Shown: piece by piece, positions 32,172 through 45,446 of the stretch
How positions within the stretch are numbered: position 1 is the first letter of the stretch
Layout of the letters: the number at the start of each line of letters is the position of its first letter
Assembly: GCA_033664045.1 (NCBI GenBank)
Contig: GCA_033664045.1_3674.1
DNA: 64,000 nucleotides
Reading direction: 5' to 3' (one strand)
From: a phage
Program-made: the position numbers and the translations under genes
The notes under the pieces: model-generated
Told to the model about the DNA's origin: nothing
What the model saw: only the letters and a program-made list of their open reading frames with translations
The model's database searches: none

Positions 32172-32480
32172 TACTTGAAAATTCCTGGCATATCAAGTAT
32201 AAGGGGGATTTCTAAAATGGATTTCCTCCTTTTGATATTTCACCGGGCTGGATATTTTAAAATTCTTAGAAAATCAGAAAATGGATCGAAAACTAAAATG
32301 GATTTTTCAGAGTAGGCGCGACAAGCTGAATAACTCATCCTATCGTTTGCACCATATTCCAGGCCACAATTACAGATTTCCAGCACATGCTCCCACCCTT
32401 CTACTAGAACTTCCTCCACTTACCCTTTACCTTCTATGGTAACAATCTAACCACTATCTTGAAGTTGCGGTGCAGCTTTC

Positions 32481-32665
32481 CAGGTACTCGATCTACTTTT
32501 CATTTCAGGGCTTGGATTTTCTGAAAATTTTTCTCGATAAATTTCTCAGTACTCGATCTGTTTTTCGTTTTCTGAATCGGATTTTCTGGAAATCGTTCCG
32601 GATCTCGACCTGAAATTTTTGGGGACGAAATCGATTTTTCGTTTTCAGAAATGGATTTTTAAAAT
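32481..32665. repeat. Iteron-like imperfect direct repeats (three copies of about 45 bp)
   Basis: CAGGTACTCGATCTACTTTTCATTTCAGGGCTTGGATTTTCTGAAAAT (32481), CAGTACTCGATCTGTTTTTCGTTTTCTGAATCGGATTTTCTGGAAAT (32546), partial copy at 32626. Confidence 0.6.
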
Positions 32666-32773
32666 TTGTATATGGAAATATTTTAGGAGGTATTATTTTA
32701 TATAGAATTGTCACGGTAGGTAATTAGCATGCTAACTAAATTTATGAAATGCGAAAAGTTCTCATTTAGAATT

Positions 32774-32792
32774 TTGAATGATAATCATTCTC
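32774..32792. promoter_or_regulatory. Fur-box-like site
   Basis: TTGAATGATAATCATTCTC, about 15/19 to the Fur consensus GATAATGATAATCATTATC. Confidence 0.4.
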
Positions 32793-32801
32793 GTTTGCAG
32801 A

Positions 32802-32830
32802 ATAACGGGCACCCCCGGTGATTGTCTCCC
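32802..32830. repeat. Left arm of a perfect 29-bp inverted repeat
   Basis: ATAACGGGCACCCCCGGTGATTGTCTCCC; exact reverse complement at 41615-41643; a degenerate direct copy at 32937-32965. Confidence 0.8.
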
Positions 32831-32893
32831 GGCCCCTACTGCCCCGGCTTGTTATTATAGTAACACACAGGACAAAGAAAGCAAGAAGTTTTT

Positions 32894-32929
32894 TGCATAA
32901 ATTTTTAGACGATAATGATAATCGTTCTC
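32894..32929 (+). promoter_or_regulatory. Candidate Fur-repressed promoter
   Basis: TTGCAT, 17-bp spacer, GATAAT; the -10 lies inside GATAATGATAATCGTTCTC (32911-32929), 17/19 to the Fur consensus. Confidence 0.45.
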
Positions 32930-33187
32930 ATTTTATGCAGCGCCCATCCCCGGTGGTTGTCTCCCTGTCACCGGTGCCTGCCGTCCTTTCGATATGTATA
33001 TTGTGCCACCTGGCGGGGCCGCTGTCAACACTTTTCAAAAAATTTTTCTAACCTGATGCGCTAACCGCTGCAACCTGGCGGGGCCAGCCTGGCAGGACCT
33101 AACTGACCAGGTAGGAGAGAATGAAGGCTTGCAAACCTGGTGGGCCTATGCTATAGGATAGGTAACAATTGAAGAGGAGGTACAAAA

Positions 33188-33364
33188 ATGAAAGGTAATA
33201 TAATCCCCCTGGAAAATGTAGCTATTAATGACGCTGAGGCTATCGCCCTGGTTGAAAAGGCTATGGCGGGAGCGTTGGAACATAAAGAAGAGTACGAAAA
33301 AATGATGGTTAACCTGGCAGGGGCGGCGGCTGGAGAATTCTACCCAAAAAATAATTTTAACTGA
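33188..33364 (+). CDS. Small hypothetical protein (58 aa)
   Basis: Hand-translated; GAAGAGGAGG site 7 nt before the ATG. Confidence 0.5.
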   Translation: MKGNIIPLENVAINDAEAIALVEKAMAGALEHKEEYEKMMVNLAGAAAGEFYPKNNFN

Positions 33365-33367
33365 TGG

Positions 33368-33396
33368 TTGACAGCTCGTACAGTTATTGTTATTCT
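33368..33396 (+). promoter_or_regulatory. Sigma70-like promoter
   Basis: TTGACA, 17-bp spacer, TATTCT. Confidence 0.45.
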
Positions 33397-33448
33397 TATC
33401 CTCGCAAGGTGAACAACACCACACCAATTAACAGAGAGGATAAAAATC

Positions 33449-33646
33449 ATGAACGCCTACGGAATCAAAGTACGTCGCAACACTCGCCAGGTGGTCACCG
33501 ATCAAATGGTTTGCCGGGTGGATGTAACCATCAACAACGGGCAAGGCCTTTATAAATTCCGTCGCGGTCAGAGCTATACCCGGCAGCAGCTTAATCGTTG
33601 CGCCCTGACAAAAGGTCAGATAAACCACTGGTTTAATAAAAAATAA
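33449..33646 (+). CDS. Small basic protein
   Basis: AGAGAGGA site. Confidence 0.5.
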   Translation: MNAYGIKVRRNTRQVVTDQMVCRVDVTINNGQGLYKFRRGQSYTRQQLNRCALTKGQINHWFNKK

Positions 33647-33649
33647 GTA

Positions 33650-33678
33650 TTGACATATAGTCCGACACCAAATACACT
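33650..33678 (+). promoter_or_regulatory. Sigma70-like promoter
   Basis: TTGACA, 17-bp spacer, TACACT. Confidence 0.5.
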
Positions 33679-33710
33679 AAAAGCACAAAAGACACTAAGA
33701 GGATAAAATC

Positions 33711-34109
33711 ATGAAAACCACTACCTTTAATTTTGATAATGCGGACTTTTCTTTTTCTGATGTCAAGAACTGCCGCCGTGATCGTGGATTTTACAAGGCC
33801 TATAATCTGGTGGGCCTGGACGATGACAATAATTTGCACGAAGTAGCTGAGATCCGGTATTATGCCGCCGCCAGCGGGAACACTCACTACTGCGTTTTTT
33901 GGATACACGACAACAAGAACAATAAGTACGGCTATACTGGAGGCAAGGCGAGCGGTCACGGTTATGATAAAGCCAACGCAGCACTTCAGAGCGCATTAAA
34001 TGCTATGGGGATCACTGCCGACGGCTGGATCTACGAAGAAGAGTTTTTGTCGGCACTTGCTGACCGCCTGGGCTATAAAAAGCACATTGTAACATGCGCC
34101 CACGAATAA
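33711..34109 (+). CDS. Hypothetical protein
   Basis: AAGAGGA site. Confidence 0.55.
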   Translation: MKTTTFNFDNADFSFSDVKNCRRDRGFYKAYNLVGLDDDNNLHEVAEIRYYAAASGNTHYCVFWIHDNKNNKYGYTGGKASGHGYDKANAALQSALNAMGITADGWIYEEEFLSALADRLGYKKHIVTCAHE

Positions 34110-34115
34110 AAATTG

Positions 34116-34143
34116 TTGACACGCTGCAAAATTCAAGTAAACT
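34116..34143 (+). promoter_or_regulatory. Sigma70-like promoter
   Basis: TTGACA, 16-bp spacer, TAAACT. Confidence 0.45.
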
Positions 34144-34191
34144 GGGCACAAAAGGCGGGAATGTTTCCCGCCAACATAAAGGAAAAAGATC

Positions 34192-34596
34192 ATGAATAAG
34201 AACGTACGCCGCATCATGAACGAACTGGCAAACGATGAAAAAATTATTGATATGCATTTGGTCAACATTTGCCGCCGTTGTGTAACATACAACAACCGCG
34301 CCGCAAAAGCGCGTGAGATGAACGCAAAAGGCACCTTAAAGCCATTCCAGGTGGTGGTAAAGGCCATTAAAGATGTAACTAATACGGCAAACCAGGTACA
34401 GGGGAACACCAACGAGAGTACCAATATTGATCCGTCTTACGTAATGAAACGGATCCGGACTTGCAAGAATAAAGAGCAGGTGTATAACGTCATAGATTGG
34501 CTGGACTCCCTGGGCGATGTGGTTTACAATAGGTTTTCTGCAGCTATTGAGATTCAGTTAGACAGGTTGGACGGGAAAGTACTAAAAACTTACTGA
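34192..34596 (+). CDS. Hypothetical protein
   Basis: AAAGGAAAAAG site. Confidence 0.55.
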   Translation: MNKNVRRIMNELANDEKIIDMHLVNICRRCVTYNNRAAKAREMNAKGTLKPFQVVVKAIKDVTNTANQVQGNTNESTNIDPSYVMKRIRTCKNKEQVYNVIDWLDSLGDVVYNRFSAAIEIQLDRLDGKVLKTY

Positions 34597-34643
34597 GTTT
34601 ATTTTTAGATGGCCTTGACTTCAGGGCCATCAATAAAGTAAAC
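34597..34643. repeat. Conserved intergenic element, copy 1
   Basis: ATTTATTTTTAGATGGCCTTGACTTCAGGGCCATCAATAAAGTAAAC with stem ATGGCC/GGCCAT; begins right after the stop codon. Confidence 0.75.
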
Positions 34644-34676
34644 TAGTCTCAACTAAGCGAAAAAGGGGGCTTTAAG

Positions 34677-34796
34677 ATGAGCACTACACGCCAATACACA
34701 AAGGTAACTATTATCGTTTGCGTTGTCGGTTACATCCTGGCGCAAATGTTAATGAGTAGCGCCAACAGTTTTGCAAAATTTTTCTTAAATTTTTAA
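34677..34796 (+). CDS. Small membrane peptide (39 aa)
   Basis: Hand-translated; AAAGGGGG site; hydrophobic core VTIIVCVVGYILAQMLM. Confidence 0.4.
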   Translation: MSTTRQYTKVTIIVCVVGYILAQMLMSSANSFAKFFLNF

Positions 34797-34825
34797 TTGA
34801 CAAGCTAACCCAAATCGGTATACTT
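34797..34825 (+). promoter_or_regulatory. Sigma70-like promoter
   Basis: TTGACA, 16-bp spacer, TATACT. Confidence 0.55.
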
Positions 34826-34875
34826 AAACACGTAAACGGGAAAACTTCCCAGAACACACAAAAGGAGAAAACACC

Positions 34876-35217
34876 ATGACTACTATGACCGCCACAGAAA
34901 AAGCTATGCAGATCGCCGCGCTGAAAAAACAGATCGCAGACCTTGAGAACAAGATCGATAACTTTGAAATCGACGAGGACAAGTACGACGAAAACTATGA
35001 CGAATGGTTAGACGAGATCTACGGCGAAATTATGATCGGAAACATTTCTTTTCTTCCGTCGCGTATCCTCAAGGAGCTGGATCCTATCGCTTACCGCTGC
35101 GGATTTAGCGACTACATCGACAGCTTGGATATTGAGGACGATGAAGAGTACCAAGAATTACAGACAGAGCTCGAAGAAGTGAAAGAAGAGCTTGCAGAAC
35201 TGGAAGAAAACGAGTAA
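34876..35217 (+). CDS. Highly acidic protein (DNA-mimic candidate)
   Basis: D/E-rich throughout with a coiled-coil-like N-terminus; AAGGAGAAAA site. Confidence 0.55.
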   Translation: MTTMTATEKAMQIAALKKQIADLENKIDNFEIDEDKYDENYDEWLDEIYGEIMIGNISFLPSRILKELDPIAYRCGFSDYIDSLDIEDDEEYQELQTELEEVKEELAELEENE

Positions 35218-35265
35218 AATTTATTTTTAGATGGCCTTGACTCCAGGGCCATCAATAAAGTAAAC
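35218..35265. repeat. Conserved intergenic element, copy 2
   Basis: AAATTTATTTTTAGATGGCCTTGACTCCAGGGCCATCAATAAAGTAAAC. Confidence 0.75.
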
Positions 35266-35307
35266 TTTATACTGTTAACACTGAACTAATGCATAGGAGT
35301 TAAAACC

Positions 35308-35553
35308 ATGGCAGCACTAATCACCAAATATTATGCCCCTACCAACACCAAAAGCGCCCGTATCATGGTAAAAGGCTTCGGACGTAAAAAGGTTTACACC
35401 TGGGATTATGCCTTAGACACAGAAGACAACTACACCAACGCGATGACCGATTTTATTAATGATCTGAACACGCGGATCTTGACAAATTATCAAATTACCG
35501 ATATTGCCTATATAGGGGAAGGCGGGATCTGTTTTGTCGGTATCGTCAAATAG
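35308..35553 (+). CDS. Hypothetical protein
   Basis: ATAGGAG site. Confidence 0.5.
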   Translation: MAALITKYYAPTNTKSARIMVKGFGRKKVYTWDYALDTEDNYTNAMTDFINDLNTRILTNYQITDIAYIGEGGICFVGIVK

Positions 35554-35630
35554 GCTGTTTTTTCGGTGGTCCTGGTAGCAGGGCCATCTATAAAGATAGT
35601 TTATCAACACAATGAAAGGAGAAAGTACAC

Positions 35631-35984
35631 ATGATCAGCGGGGCTAGTTTTATTATTGGCGCTATTGCTACGGCTTTAATTGTAAACAAGATCCAGGATA
35701 AAAAAGAAAGAGGAAGTACCGCCCTTGCAGAATATCCATTTTGGACATTCAACGATAACGAAGATTATATTATAAAGTATAAAAATAAAGAAGGCGACCA
35801 AGTAACACCGCGACCGATCCCGGCTTACAAAATGCAGGAAACACTATACCGCCTGGAGGCGGGGGGCGCAAAAATTGTGGACTTTTGGGGATACGACCAC
35901 ACAGATCAGGAAGTTATAAAGCGCCGTATCCGGGCTATTCAGGCCAATATTGAAGTTAGCAAGGGTGGAATATATGAAAATTAA
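35631..35984 (+). CDS. Membrane-anchored protein
   Basis: N-terminal helix ISGASFIIGAIATALIV; AAAGGAGAAA site. Confidence 0.5.
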   Translation: MISGASFIIGAIATALIVNKIQDKKERGSTALAEYPFWTFNDNEDYIIKYKNKEGDQVTPRPIPAYKMQETLYRLEAGGAKIVDFWGYDHTDQEVIKRRIRAIQANIEVSKGGIYEN

Positions 35985-36171
35985 TTTCGAGAAAATTGTA
36001 AAGCGCCCTCATGATTCCGAAGAGCTGCCAGAACGCCGACAGCGTAACAATAAACTGAATAAGCCAAAAAGATTTGGGAAGATCTGGCGGAATCATTATG
36101 ATCGTAAATTGCCCGGCCTACTTTTGGAACGTGAACGACAGGCAGAACGATACCGCCATAAAGACAAATAA
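35974..36171 (+). CDS. Small basic protein
   Basis: Overlaps the stop of the previous gene; R/K-rich; terminator follows. Confidence 0.4.
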   Translation: MKINFEKIVKRPHDSEELPERRQRNNKLNKPKRFGKIWRNHYDRKLPGLLLERERQAERYRHKDK

Positions 36172-36179
36172 CAACCAAC

Positions 36180-36206
36180 GCCCCGCCATTGTGCGGGGCT
36201 TTTTAT
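36180..36206 (+). terminator. Rho-independent terminator
   Basis: GCCCCGC-CATTGT-GCGGGGC followed by TTTTTATTT. Confidence 0.65.
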
Positions 36207-36330
36207 TTCTATCCTACGAATAGCGCCCCTGGTTGGCCCTGTAAGCGCCAAAAAGGCCCCCACCTATGCAATCGCCCCCCTTTAACCTGAAAACATCGCC
36301 CAGGGCCGTTTTATGGCGTTAAAAATATCA

Positions 36331-36358
36331 TTGACATCGTCAACAGGTTAGCTATACT
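36331..36358 (+). promoter_or_regulatory. Sigma70-like promoter
   Basis: TTGACA, 16-bp spacer, TATACT. Confidence 0.55.
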
Positions 36359-36390
36359 AACCACATCAAAGAGAGAAAGGAGTAAACGCC

Positions 36391-36651
36391 ATGCGTAAAT
36401 TAAAAAATTTTGATAAAGTTGATGTTATCCTGAATAATTTTTACTACTGCAACAATAAGGCTATTTGGTGGCGTGATAGTTCCACCGATAAAGTCAAGGC
36501 GCGCTTTCTTCAGGGGCACTGGCAAGGCCGCCCAGTGATTAAAATCATGGGGCAATTGGTAGCGTTTAAAAATTGCCGCCGTGTTGATGACGTTGAGGAG
36601 ATTTTAAACATTTTGCGCCACAATAATTTAAAAAATAGTGTTGACAAGTAA
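36391..36651 (+). CDS. Hypothetical protein
   Basis: AAAGGAG site. Confidence 0.5.
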   Translation: MRKLKNFDKVDVILNNFYYCNNKAIWWRDSSTDKVKARFLQGHWQGRPVIKIMGQLVAFKNCRRVDDVEEILNILRHNNLKNSVDK

Positions 36652-36668
36652 ATCTCAATAAGTATAAT
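36641..36668 (+). promoter_or_regulatory. Sigma70 consensus promoter
   Basis: TTGACA, 16-bp spacer, TATAAT. Confidence 0.6.
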
Positions 36669-36725
36669 TAAACACACAGGCGGGAAAACTTCCCGCCACT
36701 AACAAAGAAAACAGGAGAAAATATC

Positions 36726-37349
36726 ATGACCACCGTTAACATTACCACAGGTTACAATTTATCTTTCGACGTGCTGACCGATGAACAAAAAGAAAAAGCT
36801 ATTGAAATGGTCCGCGAAAGAGAAGAACACAGCGGGGATAACTTTTTTGCAGAAAGTGTAATTGAAGACTATAAAGAACATATCTTTCCAGAGTATGGCC
36901 TTGAAGATACCAAGGTACATTGGTCCGGATTTTGGTGCCAGGGCGACGGCGCATCAATCAGTGCGGAAAACGTGGATTTAGAAAAATTCTTGCGTAAAGT
37001 AAAGGCCCTTACCAAGTTCCGATCAATTCGTCACTTGTTCGGCACAATGCACGATGGCGAACTATCCGCAAGCGTTGAGCGTGATCCATATAGCCGCTAT
37101 AGTCACGAAAACACTGTAAGCGGGTACATCGATACTACATGGCTAGACCTGACCGCCAAACAAGAAAATAAAGTGGAAGATCTGGAAGAGCTGATCACCG
37201 AGACGGTACGGGAGCTATCCCGCAAGGTTTACGTAGACCTGGAGCAAGCTTATCTTGAACAATTTACTACCGAAAACCTGATCGGCCTTATCGAGGCCAA
37301 TGATTGGCGGTTTGATGTGGATGAATATGGCGAGATGACTTTTTCATAA
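36726..37349 (+). CDS. Hypothetical protein (207 aa)
   Basis: ACAGGAGAAAA site; largest gene of the small-gene block. Confidence 0.55.
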   Translation: MTTVNITTGYNLSFDVLTDEQKEKAIEMVREREEHSGDNFFAESVIEDYKEHIFPEYGLEDTKVHWSGFWCQGDGASISAENVDLEKFLRKVKALTKFRSIRHLFGTMHDGELSASVERDPYSRYSHENTVSGYIDTTWLDLTAKQENKVEDLEELITETVRELSRKVYVDLEQAYLEQFTTENLIGLIEANDWRFDVDEYGEMTFS

Positions 37350-37438
37350 ATAAAGTGTTGCAATAACCTAAAAACCTGCTATATTAAAACTCAAGGGGCA
37401 AGACGTTTGCCCCCACACAAAACAAAGAGGAAAACATC

Positions 37439-37819
37439 ATGAAAAACACCACTAAAGCTATTGACACCGTTATGTTTAACCTGGTTACCTTTCGCGAGGA
37501 TATGAAAGATCTTCCGCGTGAAACAGTGTGCGACCATATCGAAAACTATCGCAAACTAATCAAAGAGTTGCCTTTAAAACGTGATCAGTATGCGGCTAAC
37601 GCCATGCTTAATGCCATGATCAAAAAGATGATCCAGTGTGATTTAACTCTGGCCTATGACTATGCGGGTGGTCGTTTTGCAGTATACAATCAGCCCGTGC
37701 CTGGTATGAGCACCACCGAAGAATTGCACGCGCTCAATCTAAAACAAGACGTGTGGGATAGTATGCCTCGCGTGGTGGTATGGGTAGAAAGCGGAAAGAT
37801 TTACGGCGATAATTTTTAA
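37439..37819 (+). CDS. Hypothetical protein
   Basis: AAGAGGAAAA site. Confidence 0.5.
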   Translation: MKNTTKAIDTVMFNLVTFREDMKDLPRETVCDHIENYRKLIKELPLKRDQYAANAMLNAMIKKMIQCDLTLAYDYAGGRFAVYNQPVPGMSTTEELHALNLKQDVWDSMPRVVVWVESGKIYGDNF

Positions 37820-37883
37820 TCAGGTAACAGGCGGCATATTTGCCGCCTTATTGTTAATCAGAACTGTAAAAGAGGTACATAGA

Positions 37884-38255
37884 ATGGAATTTATTATTTT
37901 GGCTGTACTGGTTGCCTTGTTTAACGCCTGGATCGCTGGCAAGATGGGAAGATCCGCCTTTTTATGGTTTATTATATCTATTTTCCTGGGGGTGGTTGCA
38001 ACTATTGTATTGGTTATCCTTGCAATTGTTGACAAGGGGAATAATAGAAAGGGTAAAGTATTTTCAGACCTGTACGACGCTCAAACGTTTGTCAACGCCT
38101 ATTATAGTGATCTCCCAGTCTCCCTACGTTGCAGCCTTGCACAACAGGTTTTCGATGAAGCTAAAACCAGAGATCACGCCCATGAGATTTGTTTAACTGA
38201 GGCGGATCGCTTATTTGAGAGGAATAGAAAATATGTGGGCCAGCCGTTTAAATAA
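37884..38255 (+). CDS. Membrane protein (two transmembrane helices)
   Basis: MEFIILAVLVALFNAWIA and FLWFIISIFLGVVATIVLVILAIV; AGAGG site. Confidence 0.5.
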   Translation: MEFIILAVLVALFNAWIAGKMGRSAFLWFIISIFLGVVATIVLVILAIVDKGNNRKGKVFSDLYDAQTFVNAYYSDLPVSLRCSLAQQVFDEAKTRDHAHEICLTEADRLFERNRKYVGQPFK

Positions 38256-38454
38256 TACCACGTTAATTAATCCGCTTAGTGAAGATTTGAGGCCAGCCGC
38301 CTGGCGGGATGGATTCAATAATGAAAGCTTTATTTTCAGGCCTGATCTTAAGGAATTTTATAACAATGGATCGGACAACGACAGAGATAATTTTTCTTGT
38401 AATGTGCGTGGTGATAATACTCCTGGGGGCCATTGCAAACCACGTAACTGCTAA
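38233..38454 (+). CDS. Hypothetical protein (uncertain)
   Basis: Track ORF trimmed to ATG 38233; overlaps the neighbour; competes with another ORF in a different frame. Confidence 0.3.
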   Translation: MWASRLNNTTLINPLSEDLRPAAWRDGFNNESFIFRPDLKEFYNNGSDNDRDNFSCNVRGDNTPGGHCKPRNC

Positions 38455-38474
38455 CAGGGGGAAGGGGGGAGACG

Positions 38475-38594
38475 ATGACAACCAAGGATAAGCCCCGCAC
38501 CGATAAGGCGCGCCGTGCTATGGTATGGCTTGAGATCATCGCCCTTGAAATATTGTTAGGTGTAGGGATGTATTTTATCGCTGTAAGTAACTGA
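38475..38594 (+). CDS. Small membrane peptide (39 aa)
   Basis: Hand-translated; GGGGGGAG site; hydrophobic WLEIIALEILLGVGMYFIAV; terminator follows. Confidence 0.4.
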   Translation: MTTKDKPRTDKARRAMVWLEIIALEILLGVGMYFIAVSN

Positions 38595-38598
38595 TAAC

Positions 38599-38640
38599 GG
38601 CCCCCGATCCCTGGGGGCCTAACTTTTTAAAATTTTTTTC
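38599..38640 (+). terminator. Rho-independent terminator
   Basis: GGCCCCC-GATCCCT-GGGGGCC followed by TAACTTTTTAAAATTTTTTT. Confidence 0.6.
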
Positions 38641-38650
38641 TCCTTGGGTG

Positions 38651-38678
38651 TTGCAATCCGATCCAGAATATGGATAAT
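38651..38678 (+). promoter_or_regulatory. Sigma70-like promoter (conserved AATATGGATAATA core)
   Basis: TTGCAA, 16-bp spacer, GATAAT; nearly identical -10 region at 39482-39497. Confidence 0.5.
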
Positions 38679-38737
38679 AACAATCAACGGGGAGACACTC
38701 CCCACCACACAGACAAAATTCCAAAAGGAGAAACAAA

Positions 38738-38938
38738 ATGAGCAACAATATCCGCGTTATTAACTTCAAAAAAGAAGAAAAAATTGCTGTGCTGGTTGAT
38801 GGTCAAGAAATCTTCAAGGGCGACTATGAAGATCATCAAACGGCGATTAGTATCACTCGCGTGATCGGTTACCATAATTTCTACCCCCAAGGCGCTGAGG
38901 CAGCAGTTAAACGAATCAAAGAGATTGTAGGCCTGTAA
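38738..38938 (+). CDS. Hypothetical protein
   Basis: AAAGGAGAAA site. Confidence 0.5.
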   Translation: MSNNIRVINFKKEEKIAVLVDGQEIFKGDYEDHQTAISITRVIGYHNFYPQGAEAAVKRIKEIVGL

Positions 38939-38986
38939 AATTTATTTTTAGATGGCCTTTACTTCAGGGCCATCAATAAAGTAAAT
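38938..38986. repeat. Conserved intergenic element, copy 3
   Basis: AAATTTATTTTTAGATGGCCTTTACTTCAGGGCCATCAATAAAGTAAAT. Confidence 0.75.
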
Positions 38987-39029
38987 TTAAACCCTGTTAA
39001 AATAATCAGTGCAAAAAGGAGTAATGATC

Positions 39030-39329
39030 ATGTTTATACCCGCCAATAATCTTTATTTCTTTGATGGTCAGATCGTAGACGGTGTGGAAGTGGAGATCAC
39101 TGGGTGCCCTGGTGGTCAGGCTATGACTTTTCGGAATAATGCCTTTGATGATTCTCATATCGTTATGAGAATGGAAGTTACAAAGCTGGACGACAAGAAA
39201 ACGCTTATTGACTATTCCGTGAAAGATCATCCAGACTACCACATGATCTATGGTGATTTGTGTATTGTTGACCGTGACAAGGTGGGCGGCATTGTGATCG
39301 CTATTGTGAACGATGTTTTCTCTGAATAA
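39030..39329 (+). CDS. Hypothetical protein
   Basis: AAAAGGAG site; ATG 39030. Confidence 0.5.
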   Translation: MFIPANNLYFFDGQIVDGVEVEITGCPGGQAMTFRNNAFDDSHIVMRMEVTKLDDKKTLIDYSVKDHPDYHMIYGDLCIVDRDKVGGIVIAIVNDVFSE

Positions 39330-39469
39330 TTCCGGCAAATGATGCAAAATAAGGCCCCTAGCAGGGCCTGCAGCGATATAATCACATAAAGGCTATGCGG
39401 TTGCATGGCCTTTATTATTTTAGCGTTACAGCGGCCCCCAAGGCGCTTAAAAAATTTTTAAAGAAGTAC

Positions 39470-39497
39470 TTGCATCAAGCCCTACAATATGGATAAT
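39470..39497 (+). promoter_or_regulatory. Sigma70-like promoter (conserved AATATGGATAATA core)
   Basis: TTGCAT, 16-bp spacer, GATAAT. Confidence 0.5.
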
Positions 39498-39553
39498 AGG
39501 ACGTGTCAGGGGGGCGGCCCCAATCATTAACCGGATAGATAGGAGTTAAAACC

Positions 39554-39838
39554 ATGGCTATTGTTACTGCTGGCGATGTAGTAGAAATGGAAGCAAAATA
39601 CTTAAAAGCGGGTATGCATATCCTACGGAATGATCAAGAGTTATTATTAACGATGGTCGACTATAATCCCGGCCAGGATTATCCAAGCATCGACTACTTT
39701 TTTGAGTATGTTGATGAAGAATTAAAAGAGGATGAGGCCTATTGCGGTGAGTTCTGCAATTTCTTTTGTCCTGATGAGGTTGTAAAGGTTATCTATCAAC
39801 CTGGCGTAGCTTTCCCTCTGCACGCTATCAATAAATAA
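39554..39838 (+). CDS. Hypothetical protein
   Basis: TAGGAG site. Confidence 0.5.
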   Translation: MAIVTAGDVVEMEAKYLKAGMHILRNDQELLLTMVDYNPGQDYPSIDYFFEYVDEELKEDEAYCGEFCNFFCPDEVVKVIYQPGVAFPLHAINK

Positions 39839-39903
39839 ACCTGGCGGGGCCGAAAAGGCCCCTACAGCATAAAATCATAAAAAATAAAGAGAGGCAAATC
39901 ATC

Positions 39904-40137
39904 ATGATGGAACAAATTAAACGCGCTGAGGCTATTAATGGCAATGTGATCTATTTTGTCAGCAAAAACGAAAAAGGCGTACCATATGCGGCGGTAATAG
40001 TACAGCCTGACGGAGATTATTGGTTTACTGTATACGGATCTTATTCTTTTGGGCGTCCAGTGCATGATAAAATTTTGAAAGTAGCGAACCCCACCGGGAA
40101 GAATATCACGGCAGAAAAATTTTTTGAAAAGTGTTGA
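39904..40137 (+). CDS. Hypothetical protein
   Basis: AAAGAGAGG site. Confidence 0.5.
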   Translation: MMEQIKRAEAINGNVIYFVSKNEKGVPYAAVIVQPDGDYWFTVYGSYSFGRPVHDKILKVANPTGKNITAEKFFEKC

Positions 40138-40164
40138 CATGACCATATAAAACTGTAGTATATA
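40134..40164 (+). promoter_or_regulatory. Sigma70-like promoter
   Basis: TTGACA then an AGTATATAA -10 region. Confidence 0.45.
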
Positions 40165-40212
40165 AATCAAAGGGGGCAACAAGCCCCACCAACCACAAAG
40201 AGGATAAAAATC

Positions 40213-40392
40213 ATGGCTATTATTGCAAAAACTGAGATCGTAGGCTTAGATTCTATTCTCCTCGCATATGAGGAAGCTATAGAAATGTATGTGGTTTCCT
40301 ATGGTGAGTATATCCGTGAATATAAATCTATTGATCTGGCTTTTGAATGTTATATTCGCCAGGTAAATAAAGCATATGATGATTATCGTTAA
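40213..40392 (+). CDS. Small hypothetical protein (59 aa)
   Basis: Hand-translated; AAGAGGATAAAAA site. Confidence 0.45.
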   Translation: MAIIAKTEIVGLDSILLAYEEAIEMYVVSYGEYIREYKSIDLAFECYIRQVNKAYDDYR

Positions 40393-40488
40393 AATAGTTT
40401 GACAACAAACAACCATCTAACAAAGCATAATACATAAGGTGGTAGAATGATCTGATCCGCCACCTGGAACAAAGAAGAGGTAAACACC

Positions 40489-40593
40489 ATGAAACAGAAA
40501 TTAATTGATGCAGTGATCTTGGTTATTGCCCTAGGTATTGGCCTGATTGCAACCATGGCTAATGTGATCTTGTCTTCCAACGGTATCGGGTGA
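40489..40593 (+). CDS. Small membrane peptide (34 aa)
   Basis: Hand-translated; AAGAAGAGG site; AVILVIALGIGLIATMANVIL. Confidence 0.4.
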   Translation: MKQKLIDAVILVIALGIGLIATMANVILSSNGIG

Positions 40594-40602
40594 GGTTGAC
40601 AA

Positions 40603-40818
40603 ATGATCACTAACAAAACAGGCAAAACGGAATTTTTACGCAACTTGCAGATCGGCAAGCCTGAGATCTGGTATTGCACTAAAACACCACGTGACGAAAT
40701 GAAAGACTTCACCGCCACGCTGCAACGGGTAAAGATATCTATCACGCAGAAAAAGGCCTTACTAGTGGTGGAAGGGGAGATCCCCCAAACCGTTGTTATA
40801 GTTGAGCGTACAGCATAG
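40603..40818 (+). CDS. Hypothetical protein
   Basis: Track ORF. Confidence 0.45.
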   Translation: MITNKTGKTEFLRNLQIGKPEIWYCTKTPRDEMKDFTATLQRVKISITQKKALLVVEGEIPQTVVIVERTA

Positions 40819-40907
40819 TTTAATCTATACCGTACGCCCCATTAACTAACAAAGCATAAACAGGCGGCGGTAACCGCCTTAAACGCAGCAGAAAGAGGAT
40901 AGACAAC

Positions 40908-41192
40908 ATGAAAAAGATGATCGCAGTGGTTGCCCTGGTTATTGGACTTAATGCGCCTGTAATGGCTAAAGAGCTGGCAAAAGAGGTAGATCTAACTGAT
41001 ATCCATGCCGTCAATCAAATCGGTGTTACTTATCGGTTATGCCTTGCCGCAAAAACTTTCCAGGATGGCACAACAGAGTACTACGGATTCGAAGGCATCC
41101 GGTGCGGTGAGCTTGCTCGCGACCTTAAAGAAGATCCAGACCTGGAGGATCTGCCGATAACCGTAAACGGGAAAACTTACGTGAACCGTTAA
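40908..41192 (+). CDS. Secreted small protein (signal peptide)
   Basis: MKKMIAVVALVIGLNAPVMA signal-like N-terminus; AAAGAGGA site. Confidence 0.5.
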   Translation: MKKMIAVVALVIGLNAPVMAKELAKEVDLTDIHAVNQIGVTYRLCLAAKTFQDGTTEYYGFEGIRCGELARDLKEDPDLEDLPITVNGKTYVNR

Positions 41193-41194
41193 CC

Positions 41195-41329
41195 ATGAGA
41201 AAGATAATTATCACCATGGGGATCGTGGCGGGATCGCTGGCGCTCTTTCTCCTTATGGTTAGGTATGTGCTGATCAGTATTGTCCTGACAGTCAGTGATC
41301 TATTGGAAACGGTTGGCACCTTGTTTTAA
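41195..41329 (+). CDS. Small membrane peptide (44 aa)
   Basis: Hand-translated; starts 3 nt after the previous stop; two hydrophobic segments. Confidence 0.4.
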   Translation: MRKIIITMGIVAGSLALFLLMVRYVLISIVLTVSDLLETVGTLF

Positions 41330-41342
41330 AGAGCGATAGAAA

Positions 41343-41534
41343 ATGAATATCGAACAAGTTAGAAAGGTATTAACGGTACTGCGTTATCATAATCATAGAA
41401 AGGTCATAGACGATCCTGATTATGTTGATTCAAGCCTGGAAGGGGATACACTGCAAGCCATAAGCAACATGCAAGAATTGCTCAAGCGCATGACAGAGAA
41501 AAACCGACCGGACTACATAGGCGAAAAAATATAA
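41343..41534 (+). CDS. Hypothetical protein
   Basis: Track ORF. Confidence 0.45.
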   Translation: MNIEQVRKVLTVLRYHNHRKVIDDPDYVDSSLEGDTLQAISNMQELLKRMTEKNRPDYIGEKI

Positions 41535-41550
41535 TCCTTATAAACTACAA

Positions 41551-41580
41551 AACAGGGCTTGCAATGGTCCTGTTTTTTGT
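41551..41580 (+). terminator. Rho-independent terminator
   Basis: AACAGG-GCTTGCAATGGT-CCTGTT followed by TTTTTG. Confidence 0.6.
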
Positions 41581-41614
41581 TATACTTGTTTCACGGGTGG
41601 CACCTGGCGACGGG

Positions 41615-41643
41615 GGGAGACAATCACCGGGGGTGCCCGTTAT
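41615..41643. repeat. Right arm of the perfect 29-bp inverted repeat
   Basis: GGGAGACAATCACCGGGGGTGCCCGTTAT is the reverse complement of 32802-32830. Confidence 0.8.
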
Positions 41644-42954: not shown

Positions 42955-43570
42955 TTTGCTCTTTTCCTACCACAAACGGCCCAGCCTGGCAAGTGGAATA
43001 ATTGACTAGCCATCAATCCCGCACACTGTACAAATATACATATAAAATAGATATTGCATAACCTTTCATTGTGTGGTAGCAGGGCCATTTTTACACGTTT
43101 TTCCTTCCAAAATTGCACGTAATGCAGCTATTGCACAAAATTTAACCTGATGCACATCTTCAGTATACTGTCAACAATTAAAAACCCTTATAAGTCATAC
43201 ACTTACACAAACCAAAAAGCGTGTCCTACGTGAAAAATCGGGTGTAACTATAGCCGACAGATCTCAGAATCCACGTACGATCACCATTCTATAGCCTGCA
43301 AAGTATTTATTCCAACCACAGAATAACGGAATAGTCAATACCTGTATAAAATAATTATTCGTATAAACTGCATAACATAAACCCGCCCAGGTGTCAACAT
43401 TTTTCGTAAACAGTCCGAAATTGTCACGGTGAGTTATCATAAATAGAGAAATATTTAGTCGTCTAATGTTTACTGTACATTACTATACTGACTGGAATCA
43501 TTAGATGACTAAGAGAAAGATAAGAAATAATTAACAATGTAAGTATTTTACCTGCAACAATAAGGCAACT

Positions 43571-43803
43571 ATGCAAACGAATGTCATGGCGCGACGGAGT
43601 CGCGACATAATATAAAAGCAGTAACCATCACCCCCGTGATAGTTTGTCTGCAAACTATTAATCAGATCATAGTTGCCTTGTATTTAGTTAATCATGACAT
43701 AACAAGCAAGGCAACTATAGATCTTCTAATAGTTGCCCTGCTTTTATATTATGTCATCTATTGTAAATCAGTTAATTGTTTTCATGCAAACGAATGTCAT
43801 GGC
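43571..43803. repeat. 20-bp perfect direct repeat pair and ATAGTTGCC repeats
   Basis: ATGCAAACGAATGTCATGGC at 43571-43590 and 43784-43803; ATAGTTGCC / GGCAACTAT at 43564, 43669, 43710, 43729; palindrome AGTTTGTCTGCAAACT at 43641. Confidence 0.7.
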
Positions 43804-43830
43804 TTATCATTTTTGAGTAAATAGTTTGTT

Positions 43831-44030
43831 TGTAAACAATCTATACGTAAACAGTTAACTATGTAAACTATTAGATATGTAAACTATTGGTTATGTAGAC
43901 TATCAGGAATGTAAACAGTAAAGCGAGTGAATAGTGAGAGCGTAAACAGTCAGGCATGTCAATTATGTTTAATGTGCCCAGTATGTCACTATTGTGTCTA
44001 AAGTGTCATAGTATGTCACAGTATGTCAGA
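43831..44030. repeat. Arrays of short direct repeats
   Basis: Seven copies of TGTAAAC-like motif at about 15-bp spacing (43831-43950), then four to five copies of GTATGTCA (43955-44030). Confidence 0.7.
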
Positions 44031-45446
44031 CAAGTTTTTCTCCTCTTTGTCAAGTGCTGCATGAAAAATTTACAAACTGGTATGGTAGCATTTTTGCGGC
44101 CCTGTTTACATTCAGTAATGTATGTATAATCCTTGTTGTGTGGGCGTTTGGACGTCTAGACGGTTGGAAGTCTGCAGGTCAATATCTAATCTATTGGCTG
44201 CTAACTATATCCCACACAAATAGTAAGAAATATGATTGTTATATGCGTAAACAGTAACTCATGTTATCAATCCCTGTATGTATCGCCAGTGGTGCGCATA
44301 ATGGGTATTATGTTAAATTGCCCGTAATGATAACTATTCTCACAATGATAGGTATTCTCATTCACCCCCACAAGATAGGTTGCAAATGTTGTGCCACTGT
44401 GTGAACGGCCTCACCTATTAATTTGCCTCACTGCCTCGATATTTGAGAATTGTTATAAGAATGAGAAGTATTCCCATTCCGTCCGCCTGGCAGCACTCCA
44501 GTCGCTACGGCTCATAACAGGGCAGAACTGGGTCCATTCAGATATTTCTGGCTGGCTCTTCAGGTCTGTGTGGGAAAAGCCAACCTCTCCTGCGGCGGGG
44601 AGGGGGTCAATTAAAAAATTTACGTGGTATATGTAGCGCTGTTCAGGTAAGGCATGTATTATGGGATGAAATCCTCTTCAGGCAATGATATTTGTGGGTG
44701 TGATATTTGCTGGAAAGCCAGATATGACGGGACTCCCGGCGGGGCAGGGGTGGTACAGACAGGGAAAATATGGAGGATGTGGTTGGGTGAATTGATCAGA
44801 CAGGTAGAGTATGGAATATGTTACAAGTATGTTAAATATGAAGGGTGAATATCTGTAGGATTTGTGTGTAAAATCAAAGACTTAAGTAGTGTTGTGGTAT
44901 TTTCTATAAATAATTCAAGTTTAATAGGTAATATTTGTCTCTATCCACTTTGTGTGGTAAACAAATTCAGATGAGATTGGTTTACAAGTGTATACATAAT
45001 ATACAAATTAAAGATACAAGAAACCCCCCTCCCCCTTCGGCTACCATTCACCTTTTCCTCTGACTGGTACTTAAACACTTATTCAGACTCTTCAGGTTAT
45101 CACCCATATATCATATGGCAGTGACTGGTGTCCTCCGGCCCCTCTTTCGTCACCCGTCCGCTTCGCCATGCTAATGCCATAGCCAAATGTTCGGTTGTTC
45201 ACCCTGTTCACTCAGGTGTATCTCCATACCCCTTCAAACCGAAGAGAACAGAAAACCCGAATTACTCGGTAAAAGAAAAGAGAAGAACTTAATTTTATCA
45301 AGATAGGCAAGAATGTCAAGGCATGACTGCTCACTAAACAAGCAAACAGTCATGTGCGGTAGGTAAGTGATTGTGGTTGTAGGAAATTTAATTGAAAGAT
45401 GTGTTATAGGTGCTTCCAGCACTTTAGCCTGGCAGCTAATTGTGTG

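Follow-up and report, generated by a model that had tools for sequence, protein, structure and literature searches.

Why should a phage carry a perfect 29-bp inverted repeat around some 8.8 kb of small early genes? The stretch of DNA that raises this question, here called the window, is 64,000 nt of contig GCA_033664045.1_3674.1 and belongs to an rV5-like (Vequintavirus) coliphage, ~93% identical to Escherichia phage rV5 and to about 200 other Vequintavirus records; the rV5 counterpart of the region runs from ORF207 to ORF164, all on the window's plus strand. The initial annotation offered three roles for the repeat, namely sites for a shared regulator, sites of recombination or inversion, or the ends of an acquired cassette, and only the first of these fits the evidence. 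We hypothesize that the 29-mer is, on balance, a promoter-proximal control site shared by three outward-facing units of host polymerase and bound by a putative factor. The rV5-like phages are widely used in therapy and biocontrol, yet next to nothing has been established about how they regulate early genes, where their replication starts or where their genomes end. The odd repeat is here recast as a defined, testable cis element that two phage subfamilies retain and that is associated with three specific promoters and with Fur boxes.

The repeat itself is not in doubt. The plus-strand sequence ATAACGGGCACCCCCGGTGATTGTCTCCC at 32802-32830 recurs as its exact reverse complement at 41615-41643, as the initial annotation had reported, with a gap of 8,784 nt between the arms. 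These are the only sites in the 64-kb window that match the 29-mer at three or fewer mismatches, and none of 100 dinucleotide shuffles of the window contained any match, which bears out the earlier judgement that a 29/29 match is beyond chance in 64 kb. We refer to the left arm as c1 (32802-32830, minus strand, GGGAGACAATCACCGGGGGTGCCCGTTAT) and to the right arm as c3 (41615-41643, plus strand, also GGGAGACAATCACCGGGGGTGCCCGTTAT). The degenerate direct copy described earlier, c2 (32937-32965, minus strand, GGGAGACAACCACCGGGGATGGGCGCTGC), holds up as well: it is identical to c1 at 21 of 29 positions (the 23-mer once quoted for it maps to 32943-32965), and a profile derived from 37 related copies picks out just these three sites in the window (E = 6e-14, 1.5e-12 and 4e-8; next match E = 7.3). 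The arms do flank a block of small ORFs (32831-41614), all on the plus strand and all without an assigned function. The inverted repeat is real and far beyond chance, and its bracketing of the gene block is incidental.

What the copies have in common is their position behind a promoter. When all copies, from the window and its relatives, are oriented alike as GAGACAA..., the consensus of the three-copy element is GAGACAAWCACC-N5-TGCC-N-G-YY-AT. Information content is highest over GAGACAAWCACC and TGCC, that is, over the 29-mer of the initial annotation, and the 30 nt upstream vary by copy type; the block is asymmetric, ~29 nt long and without a dyad. In this orientation a sigma-70-type promoter lies directly upstream of each of the three copies. 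The candidate c1 promoter (32854-32884, minus strand) combines a -35 box TTGCTT (32884-32879), a 19-nt spacer and a -10 box TATAAT (32859-32854) that ends 21 nt ahead of the core; because of its 19-nt spacer it was unlisted by the promoter scan, and it was read from the sequence and then scored. The c2 promoter (33000-33028, minus strand) is TTGACA-17-CACAAT with a TG before the -10 box and 10 of 12 matches. The c3 module starts (41549-41586, plus strand) with a weak terminator-like stem-loop at 41549-41576, whose loop holds the -35 box of the promoter TTGCAA-16-TATACT (41559-41586, with TG). The c3 copy lies between this stem-loop and the next promoter downstream, rV5 P168 (41664-41692, plus strand, TTGACA-17-TAGCAT), which drives ORF168/167 onwards.

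The same arrangement is seen when relatives are included. Promoters were scored in 34 non-redundant rows taken from the retrieved loci; two or three of these rows are not copies but chance matches to the regular expression, without relation to the element. The upstream score was higher in the GAGACAA than in the opposite orientation in 28 rows and lower in three (means 8.8 versus 7.5), and 41% of the rows reached a score of at least 9 of 12, versus 7% of random background segments. The distance from the end of the -10 box to the core is 19-33 nt overall, with 21-23 nt for c1-type, 26 nt for c3-type and 32-33 nt for c2-type copies. All of the c1/c2 and c3 promoters point outward from the 8.8-kb block, and the arms are inverted because c1 and c2 follow leftward (minus-strand) promoters and c3 a rightward one. 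A second exact inverted repeat, missed by the initial annotation, also consists of promoter DNA: AGAAAAATTTTTTGAAAAGTGTTGACA, 27 nt at 33023-33049 and 40113-40139, is a promoter UP element plus -35 box TTGACA, and one of its arms forms the UP element and -35 box of the c2 promoter. This 27-nt front end is common to the minus-strand c2 promoter and to the plus-strand promoter before the gene at 40213.

How old is the pair? About 215 related GenBank records were found, and some 20 genomes were fetched for copy comparison. The c1 module (Fur box plus block) is 78-88% identical in relatives where the neighbouring non-coding DNA no longer aligns, namely Pectobacterium phage CB7, Cronobacter phage PBES02, Serratia phage Kashira, coliphage 4MG, Klebsiella phage Seu621, Erwinia phage Hena1 and Salmonella phage GEC_vB_MG; in Phapecoctavirus anhysbys the identity is only ~70%. 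Conserved c1 and c3 modules, at 78-88% identity, occur in Certrevirus, Seunavirus, Mydovirus, Henunavirus, Serratia phages and Phapecoctavirus, and the c3 module is kept with its promoter stem-loop in Phapecoctavirus (ESCO5, anhysbys), Certrevirus (CR3) and Salmonella phages. An outward-facing inverted pair 8-11 kb apart is found in other genera of Vequintavirinae and in Stephanstirmvirinae (10.65 kb in CR3, 9.8 kb in anhysbys, ~11 kb in SSBI34), with different genes in between. These alignments indicate an ancient inverted pair, with a motif conserved across two phage subfamilies. We found no match to the c1 module in 5,426 E. coli genomes, which speaks against a host origin.

The perfection of the repeat is another matter. 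The exact 29-mer occurs in 28 related records, and it occurs twice in only three of the ~215, HMD-6, SYGMH1 and VB-EcoM-WM. The longest exact inverted match between c1 and c3 is 29 nt in the window and in these three genomes, 19 nt in rV5, 13 nt in L083 (a relative from IMG/VR), 12 nt in CR3 and 6 nt in anhysbys. Within the 29-nt sublineage the 3' part of c3, which reads GGTGCCTGTCAT in rV5, now has the GGTGCCCGTTAT of c1, alongside a CA-to-GT change upstream. We infer that the 29/29 identity reflects a recent, lineage-specific homogenisation of c3 by c1, and that it is not the functional unit.

Searches for a wider distribution added little. IMG/VR scans returned mostly chance matches, and loci sought through the protein downstream of c3 were mostly prophage-like contigs without the element. 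One IMG/VR genome that seems unrelated, IMGVR_UViG_3300027123_000194 (46.8 kb; loci L007 and L012), with no relative among GenBank phages, carries GGAGACAAWCACCGGGG 19-20 nt after TATAAT boxes. It has three clear copies (one in L007, two in L012) and a fourth near L012 2700 with a weaker TATAAT context by eye; two copies fall within 5' leaders of small genes, and one precedes a bidirectional terminator. This is the same motif in the same position as the 29-mer element, and homology is unproven. In the literature that our searches returned, neither the element nor Fur boxes are described for these phages.

The conserved feature, then, is primary sequence at a near-fixed position after a promoter, which may be read as DNA or as nascent RNA. 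In our proposal, three promoters of the host sigma-70 RNA polymerase each carry the block within their initially transcribed region, at about +15 to +45. Two of these, at c1 and c2, would fire in tandem leftward out of the early-gene block, sending transcripts through Fur boxes into an AT-rich, iteron-bearing non-coding hub, and the third, at c3, would fire rightward toward the four early genes that remain and the presumed end of the genome. A putative trans-acting factor would bind either the DNA just past the promoter or the first 45 nt of the nascent RNA, and in this way elongation from the outward-facing units would be gated in all three at once, with a Fur roadblock acting in series at c1 and c2. 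Later, in a small sublineage, c3 would have been homogenised to the c1 sequence, giving the 29/29 identity.

Several points weigh against such a shared control site. The distance from promoter to core differs between the copies (21, 26 and 32 nt), so any DNA-bound factor would not be phased with polymerase. In the window the c1 promoter combines a poor -35 box with a spacer of 19 nt. No gene is evident that the leftward c1 and c2 transcripts could serve to express, nor was a terminator found for them. Promoters and Fur boxes alike are assigned from consensus matches only, and the binding factor is putative. Even so, we lean toward a shared regulator, the suggestion that the initial annotation placed first: all copies stand at a near-fixed distance past sigma-70-type promoters, and the motif is kept in two subfamilies. 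If a factor does bind the element, that factor would open a way into a conserved early switch, and it might also lead to a connection between the iron status of the host and the development of the phage.

Each leftward copy is followed by a predicted Fur box. The left arm lies within a non-coding hub of ~750 bp (~32440-33180). Just past c1 in the direction of minus-strand transcription is a Fur-box-like site at 32774-32792 (TTGAATGATAATCATTCTC) that matches the consensus GATAATGATAATCATTATC at 15 of 19 positions, and just past c2 a second one at 32911-32929 (GATAATGATAATCGTTCTC) matches it at 17 of 19. As strong consensus matches these two are predicted Fur boxes; block shuffles give a mean of only 3.7 sites with at least 14 of 19 matches per 64 kb. 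A Fur box also follows c3 in CR3, L082 and SSBI34. Clusters of such sites (up to 17/19) stand in this strictly virulent phage at 32774-32792, 32911-32929, 44323-44365 and 44455-44480; relatives L016, L018 and L019 have one to four matches each, and the clusters are kept across the hubs of Vequintavirinae and Stephanstirmvirinae and near the terminal repeat. They could serve an iron response of early events, or Fur titration during genome replication. During infection by Pseudomonas phage PAK_P4, host iron-uptake genes are reported to be strongly induced (PMC5563952).

Among known systems, a control site of this kind would work most like lambda nutL/nutR or like a downstream operator. Downstream operators such as lac O1, gal OI and Fur boxes resemble it in that a conserved sequence occupies about +15 to +45 of several promoters, here with a Fur-box match in series; they differ in that the block here is asymmetric and without a dyad, that its distance from the promoter varies by 12 nt and that no cognate repressor is known. 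The nut sites of lambda and the putL/putR sites of HK022 are near-identical short elements that act in cis past two divergent early promoters and hence form an inverted pair. The likeness extends to position, as promoters lie 19-33 nt upstream of each copy here and run in opposite directions. However, the pair here faces outward from a one-way gene block and has three copies, and by the comparisons below it fails the structural test for a nut site and shows no clear boxA. The element is a new instance of a familiar class, the repeated promoter-proximal cis elements.

Would such a site be read as folded RNA? The rival that survives best is really a sub-case of the promoter-proximal control site: each of the three transcripts would begin with a GC-rich stem-loop of ~50 nt, with the block as its 3' half, and this RNA would act as a nut/put-like antitermination signal or as a 5' stabiliser. 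We regard this as a tentative possibility. Helices do form around the core in some copies (11 bp in rV5 c3, 10 bp in Kashira, 8 bp in c1 of SSBI34 and of Certrevirus; shuffle p 0.006-0.07), their arms vary by lineage (AUAGCGGG/CCCGCUAU, GGCAGGCA/UGCCUGCC, GAUGAC/GUCAUU), and several G.U pairs in the stem arms are valid on the GAGACAA strand only (partly by eye). This promoter-sense strand folds better in 27 of 37 copies, which are related sequences and G-rich on that strand, and the cost of mirroring a structure onto the opposite strand is higher in this direction (3.5 versus 1.6 kcal/mol). In relatives, moreover, the neighbouring slot is taken by a candidate structured RNA that reads on the same strand and shows covarying pairs.

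The controls pull the other way. Folding of the arm transcripts, a check proposed with the initial annotation, came out in favour for c3 (z = -2.26 versus shuffles) and against for the other two, with c1 folding worse than its shuffles (z = +0.85) and c2 ordinary (z = -0.71). The inner stem, formed by the flanks immediately around the loop, averages 3.69 bp versus 3.61 by chance, so a boxB-type hairpin (5-bp stem and pentaloop) is not supported. The outer stem, which pairs the upstream 30 nt with the 3' conserved part, averages 6.7 bp versus 6.0 in shuffles and is individually significant in three of 37 copies (rV5 c3, Kashira and SSBI34 c1, with the helix lengths given above). RNAalifold finds no consensus structure for c1 copies and only invariant pairs for c3, and the c3 alignment holds 18 G.U cells versus 14 A.C cells. 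There is no clear boxA: the best resemblance to a CGCUCUUUA-like sequence is CGCUAUUCU, 6/9 by eye, inside the putative stem. The window has no Rfam match at gathering score; matches within 32300-33300 are weak (E at least 0.11, far under the gathering scores), and eight relatives have none. No N homologue is known, and no search for an N-like protein was made. A general GC-rich hairpin, our first reading of the element, was rejected since the shuffle controls for both inner and outer stems were weak.

The candidate RNA of the neighbouring slot merits its own description. It is a candidate of ~70 nt found in relatives (L016, L018-L024 and L092; alignment A3) on the same strand as c1, with its own promoter upstream; it is missing from the window, where c2 takes its slot. 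Its elements are a CGCC/GGCG stem and a long-range GGCGG/UCGCC helix, in which G.U occurs in 9 of 10 sequences; two pairs covary, a pseudoknot (CCCC/GGGG) is possible, and Rfam offers no match. A CpxR-box-like direct repeat, GTAAA-N5-GTAAA, follows it.

A further alternative assigns the leftward promoters to replication. Three tandem iteron-like repeats of ~65-74 bp lie at 32474-32660, after which comes the stretch with the lowest GC content of the region (29%), and the c1 and c2 transcripts would point into both. The repeats are a candidate origin or protein-binding array. In relatives there are three to four iteron units, built as GGTCTCGATCG..TTTTC..ATCGTATT plus GAAAAAATTTTT; GATC sites and a palindrome lie inside each unit. 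According to the origin hypothesis, the tandem c1 and c2 promoters feed G-rich transcripts into this hub to yield a primer or R-loop, and c3 marks a secondary origin near the genome end. The layout is suggestive, with two tandem promoters, a GC-rich block, Fur boxes, the 29%-GC stretch and three GATC-containing iterons in a hub that is conserved across genera, and it recalls T4 oriF/oriG and the T7 primary origin, where the tandem promoters phi1.1A/B accompany an AT-rich region. The phage is also of the T7 replisome type: according to its genome paper (PMC3606486), rV5 has genes for a T7-like primase-helicase and for a DNA polymerase of family A; that paper leaves the origin undefined and draws the region simply as a 'non-coding' box. 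However, the promoters here are of host type and are joined by iterons and Fur boxes; the likeness is architectural, as is the argument as a whole. In the window c3 precedes just another promoter and genes, and R-loop formation leaves the conserved primary sequence unexplained. We consider origin priming an unlikely explanation of the element.

More ambitious, and in our estimation quite unlikely, is a host-sensing control hub that would combine the three elements with the Fur boxes, the iterons and a terminal repeat bearing a dif-like site. Here the outward promoters, ~8% of the genome from its physical end, would be gated both by a putative factor at the 29-mer and by Fur according to iron status, and their transcripts would license the initiation of replication or else, much as at the first-step-transfer boundary of T5, a second stage of genome entry. 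The element is valuable mainly because it gives access to the conserved non-coding hub of the rV5-like phages. One record, LC739538.1 (phiWec189), starts and ends within the hub, with ~148 bp that include c1 at both ends (window 32785-32932); the end repeat is either an assembly overlap or a differing call of the genome ends.

Do the arms mobilise or flip what they enclose? Exact inverted 29-bp arms could in principle support site-specific or homologous inversion of the 8.8-kb early block, much as the short (~26-bp) inverted sites of Hin/hix, Gin/gix and Cin/cix flank a few kilobases. However, comparison of relatives, the test put forward with the initial annotation, shows block content that varies by small indels and orientation that is constant: 66 records span at least 80% of a 10.5-kb query on a single strand, and rV5, L083 and the three perfect-arm genomes are collinear with the window apart from small indels. 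In most relatives the arms match over 6-19 nt only. No Pfam family scored above cut-off in any of the ten largest block ORFs, which show no recombinase, invertase, integrase or transposase, and the PHROGs matches of these ORFs are all of unknown function (the scan covered ORFs of 90 aa or more); nor do the arms resemble hix or gix. Inversion is thus so improbable that we set it aside. Terminal repeats of an acquired mobile cassette are no better placed: inverted arms around accessory-looking small genes of variable content would suit one, but the outer flanks differ (TTTGCAGA versus ATAAAAAA) and give no target-site duplication, a transposase is absent from those same ten ORFs, the GC content of the block is ordinary, no relative has the block cleanly missing, and the arms occur in every relative examined, with an ancient pair kept in two subfamilies around internal genes that vary. 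The perfect repeat should not count as evidence of mobility or of phase variation.

The front of the c3 module resembles another known system. T4-type phages are reported (Arbiol, Comeau and Krisch 2010) to carry promoter-early stem-loops (PeSLs), repeated promoter/stem-loop cassettes between small early genes with recombination joints at the cassette. The front of the c3 module, and no other part of the element, has these features: a stem-loop at 41549-41576 whose loop contains a -35 box and, at 41550, a break in homology, with the match to three relatives restarting exactly at the module start. The 29-mer itself lies outside this PeSL-like feature. It differs from T4-type PeSLs in that the conserved block is past the transcription start rather than in the promoter stem-loop, and in that it is kept at just three specific sites over subfamily-level distances. 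A separate family of 54-nt modules, D1 (TTTATTTTTAGATGGCCTTGACTCCAGGGCCATCAATAAAGTAAACT; 34592-34645, 35214-35267, 35549-35602 and 38935-38988), has a stem-loop with the -35 box in the loop in each member, like the T4-type PeSLs that mediate gene shuffling.

Other identities for the core were tried and rejected. Plus-strand ORFs run through c1 (32778-32900) and c2 (32915-33064), with the core in different frames and no Shine-Dalgarno sequence by eye. The core resembles GGAGAAAACACC-ATG initiation regions, as a mimic of a ribosome-binding site would, only when a gap is permitted; of 39 approximate matches in the window, three are the copies themselves and only three of the other 36 precede a start codon. 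A search of the window for tRNA and tmRNA found none. By-eye comparison with sigma-54, sigma-32, DnaA, IHF, CRP, Ter and matS sites, and with RfaH ops, -10-like pause elements, G-quadruplexes and CsrA GGA motifs, gave no motif kept across copies; the ops-like string GGCGGTAG is present in some c1 flanks only.

The rightward unit points toward what is presumably the end of the genome. Many relatives' GenBank records begin at about window 44,000-44,500, which makes this region the probable physical end of the genome. At 44291-44318 lies GGTGCGCATAATGGGTATTATGTTAAAT, a near-perfect dif site of the E. coli type with intact XerC and XerD arms and two spacer changes, in a non-coding region of more than 2.3 kb (~42,960-45,300). 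The dif-like site is kept in every Vequintavirus locus fetched, always with two Fur-box-like sites after it (44323 onwards in the window), and it also occurs at L094 12113-12140, within the annotated 519-bp direct terminal repeat of Erwinia phage Hena1. XerCD recombination between dif copies in the two terminal repeats could circularise the incoming genome. Adjoining the dif-like site is a repeat family, CGTAAACAGT..ATGTAAACTAT, at 43842-44271, which includes three 16-nt tandem units at 43842-43903.

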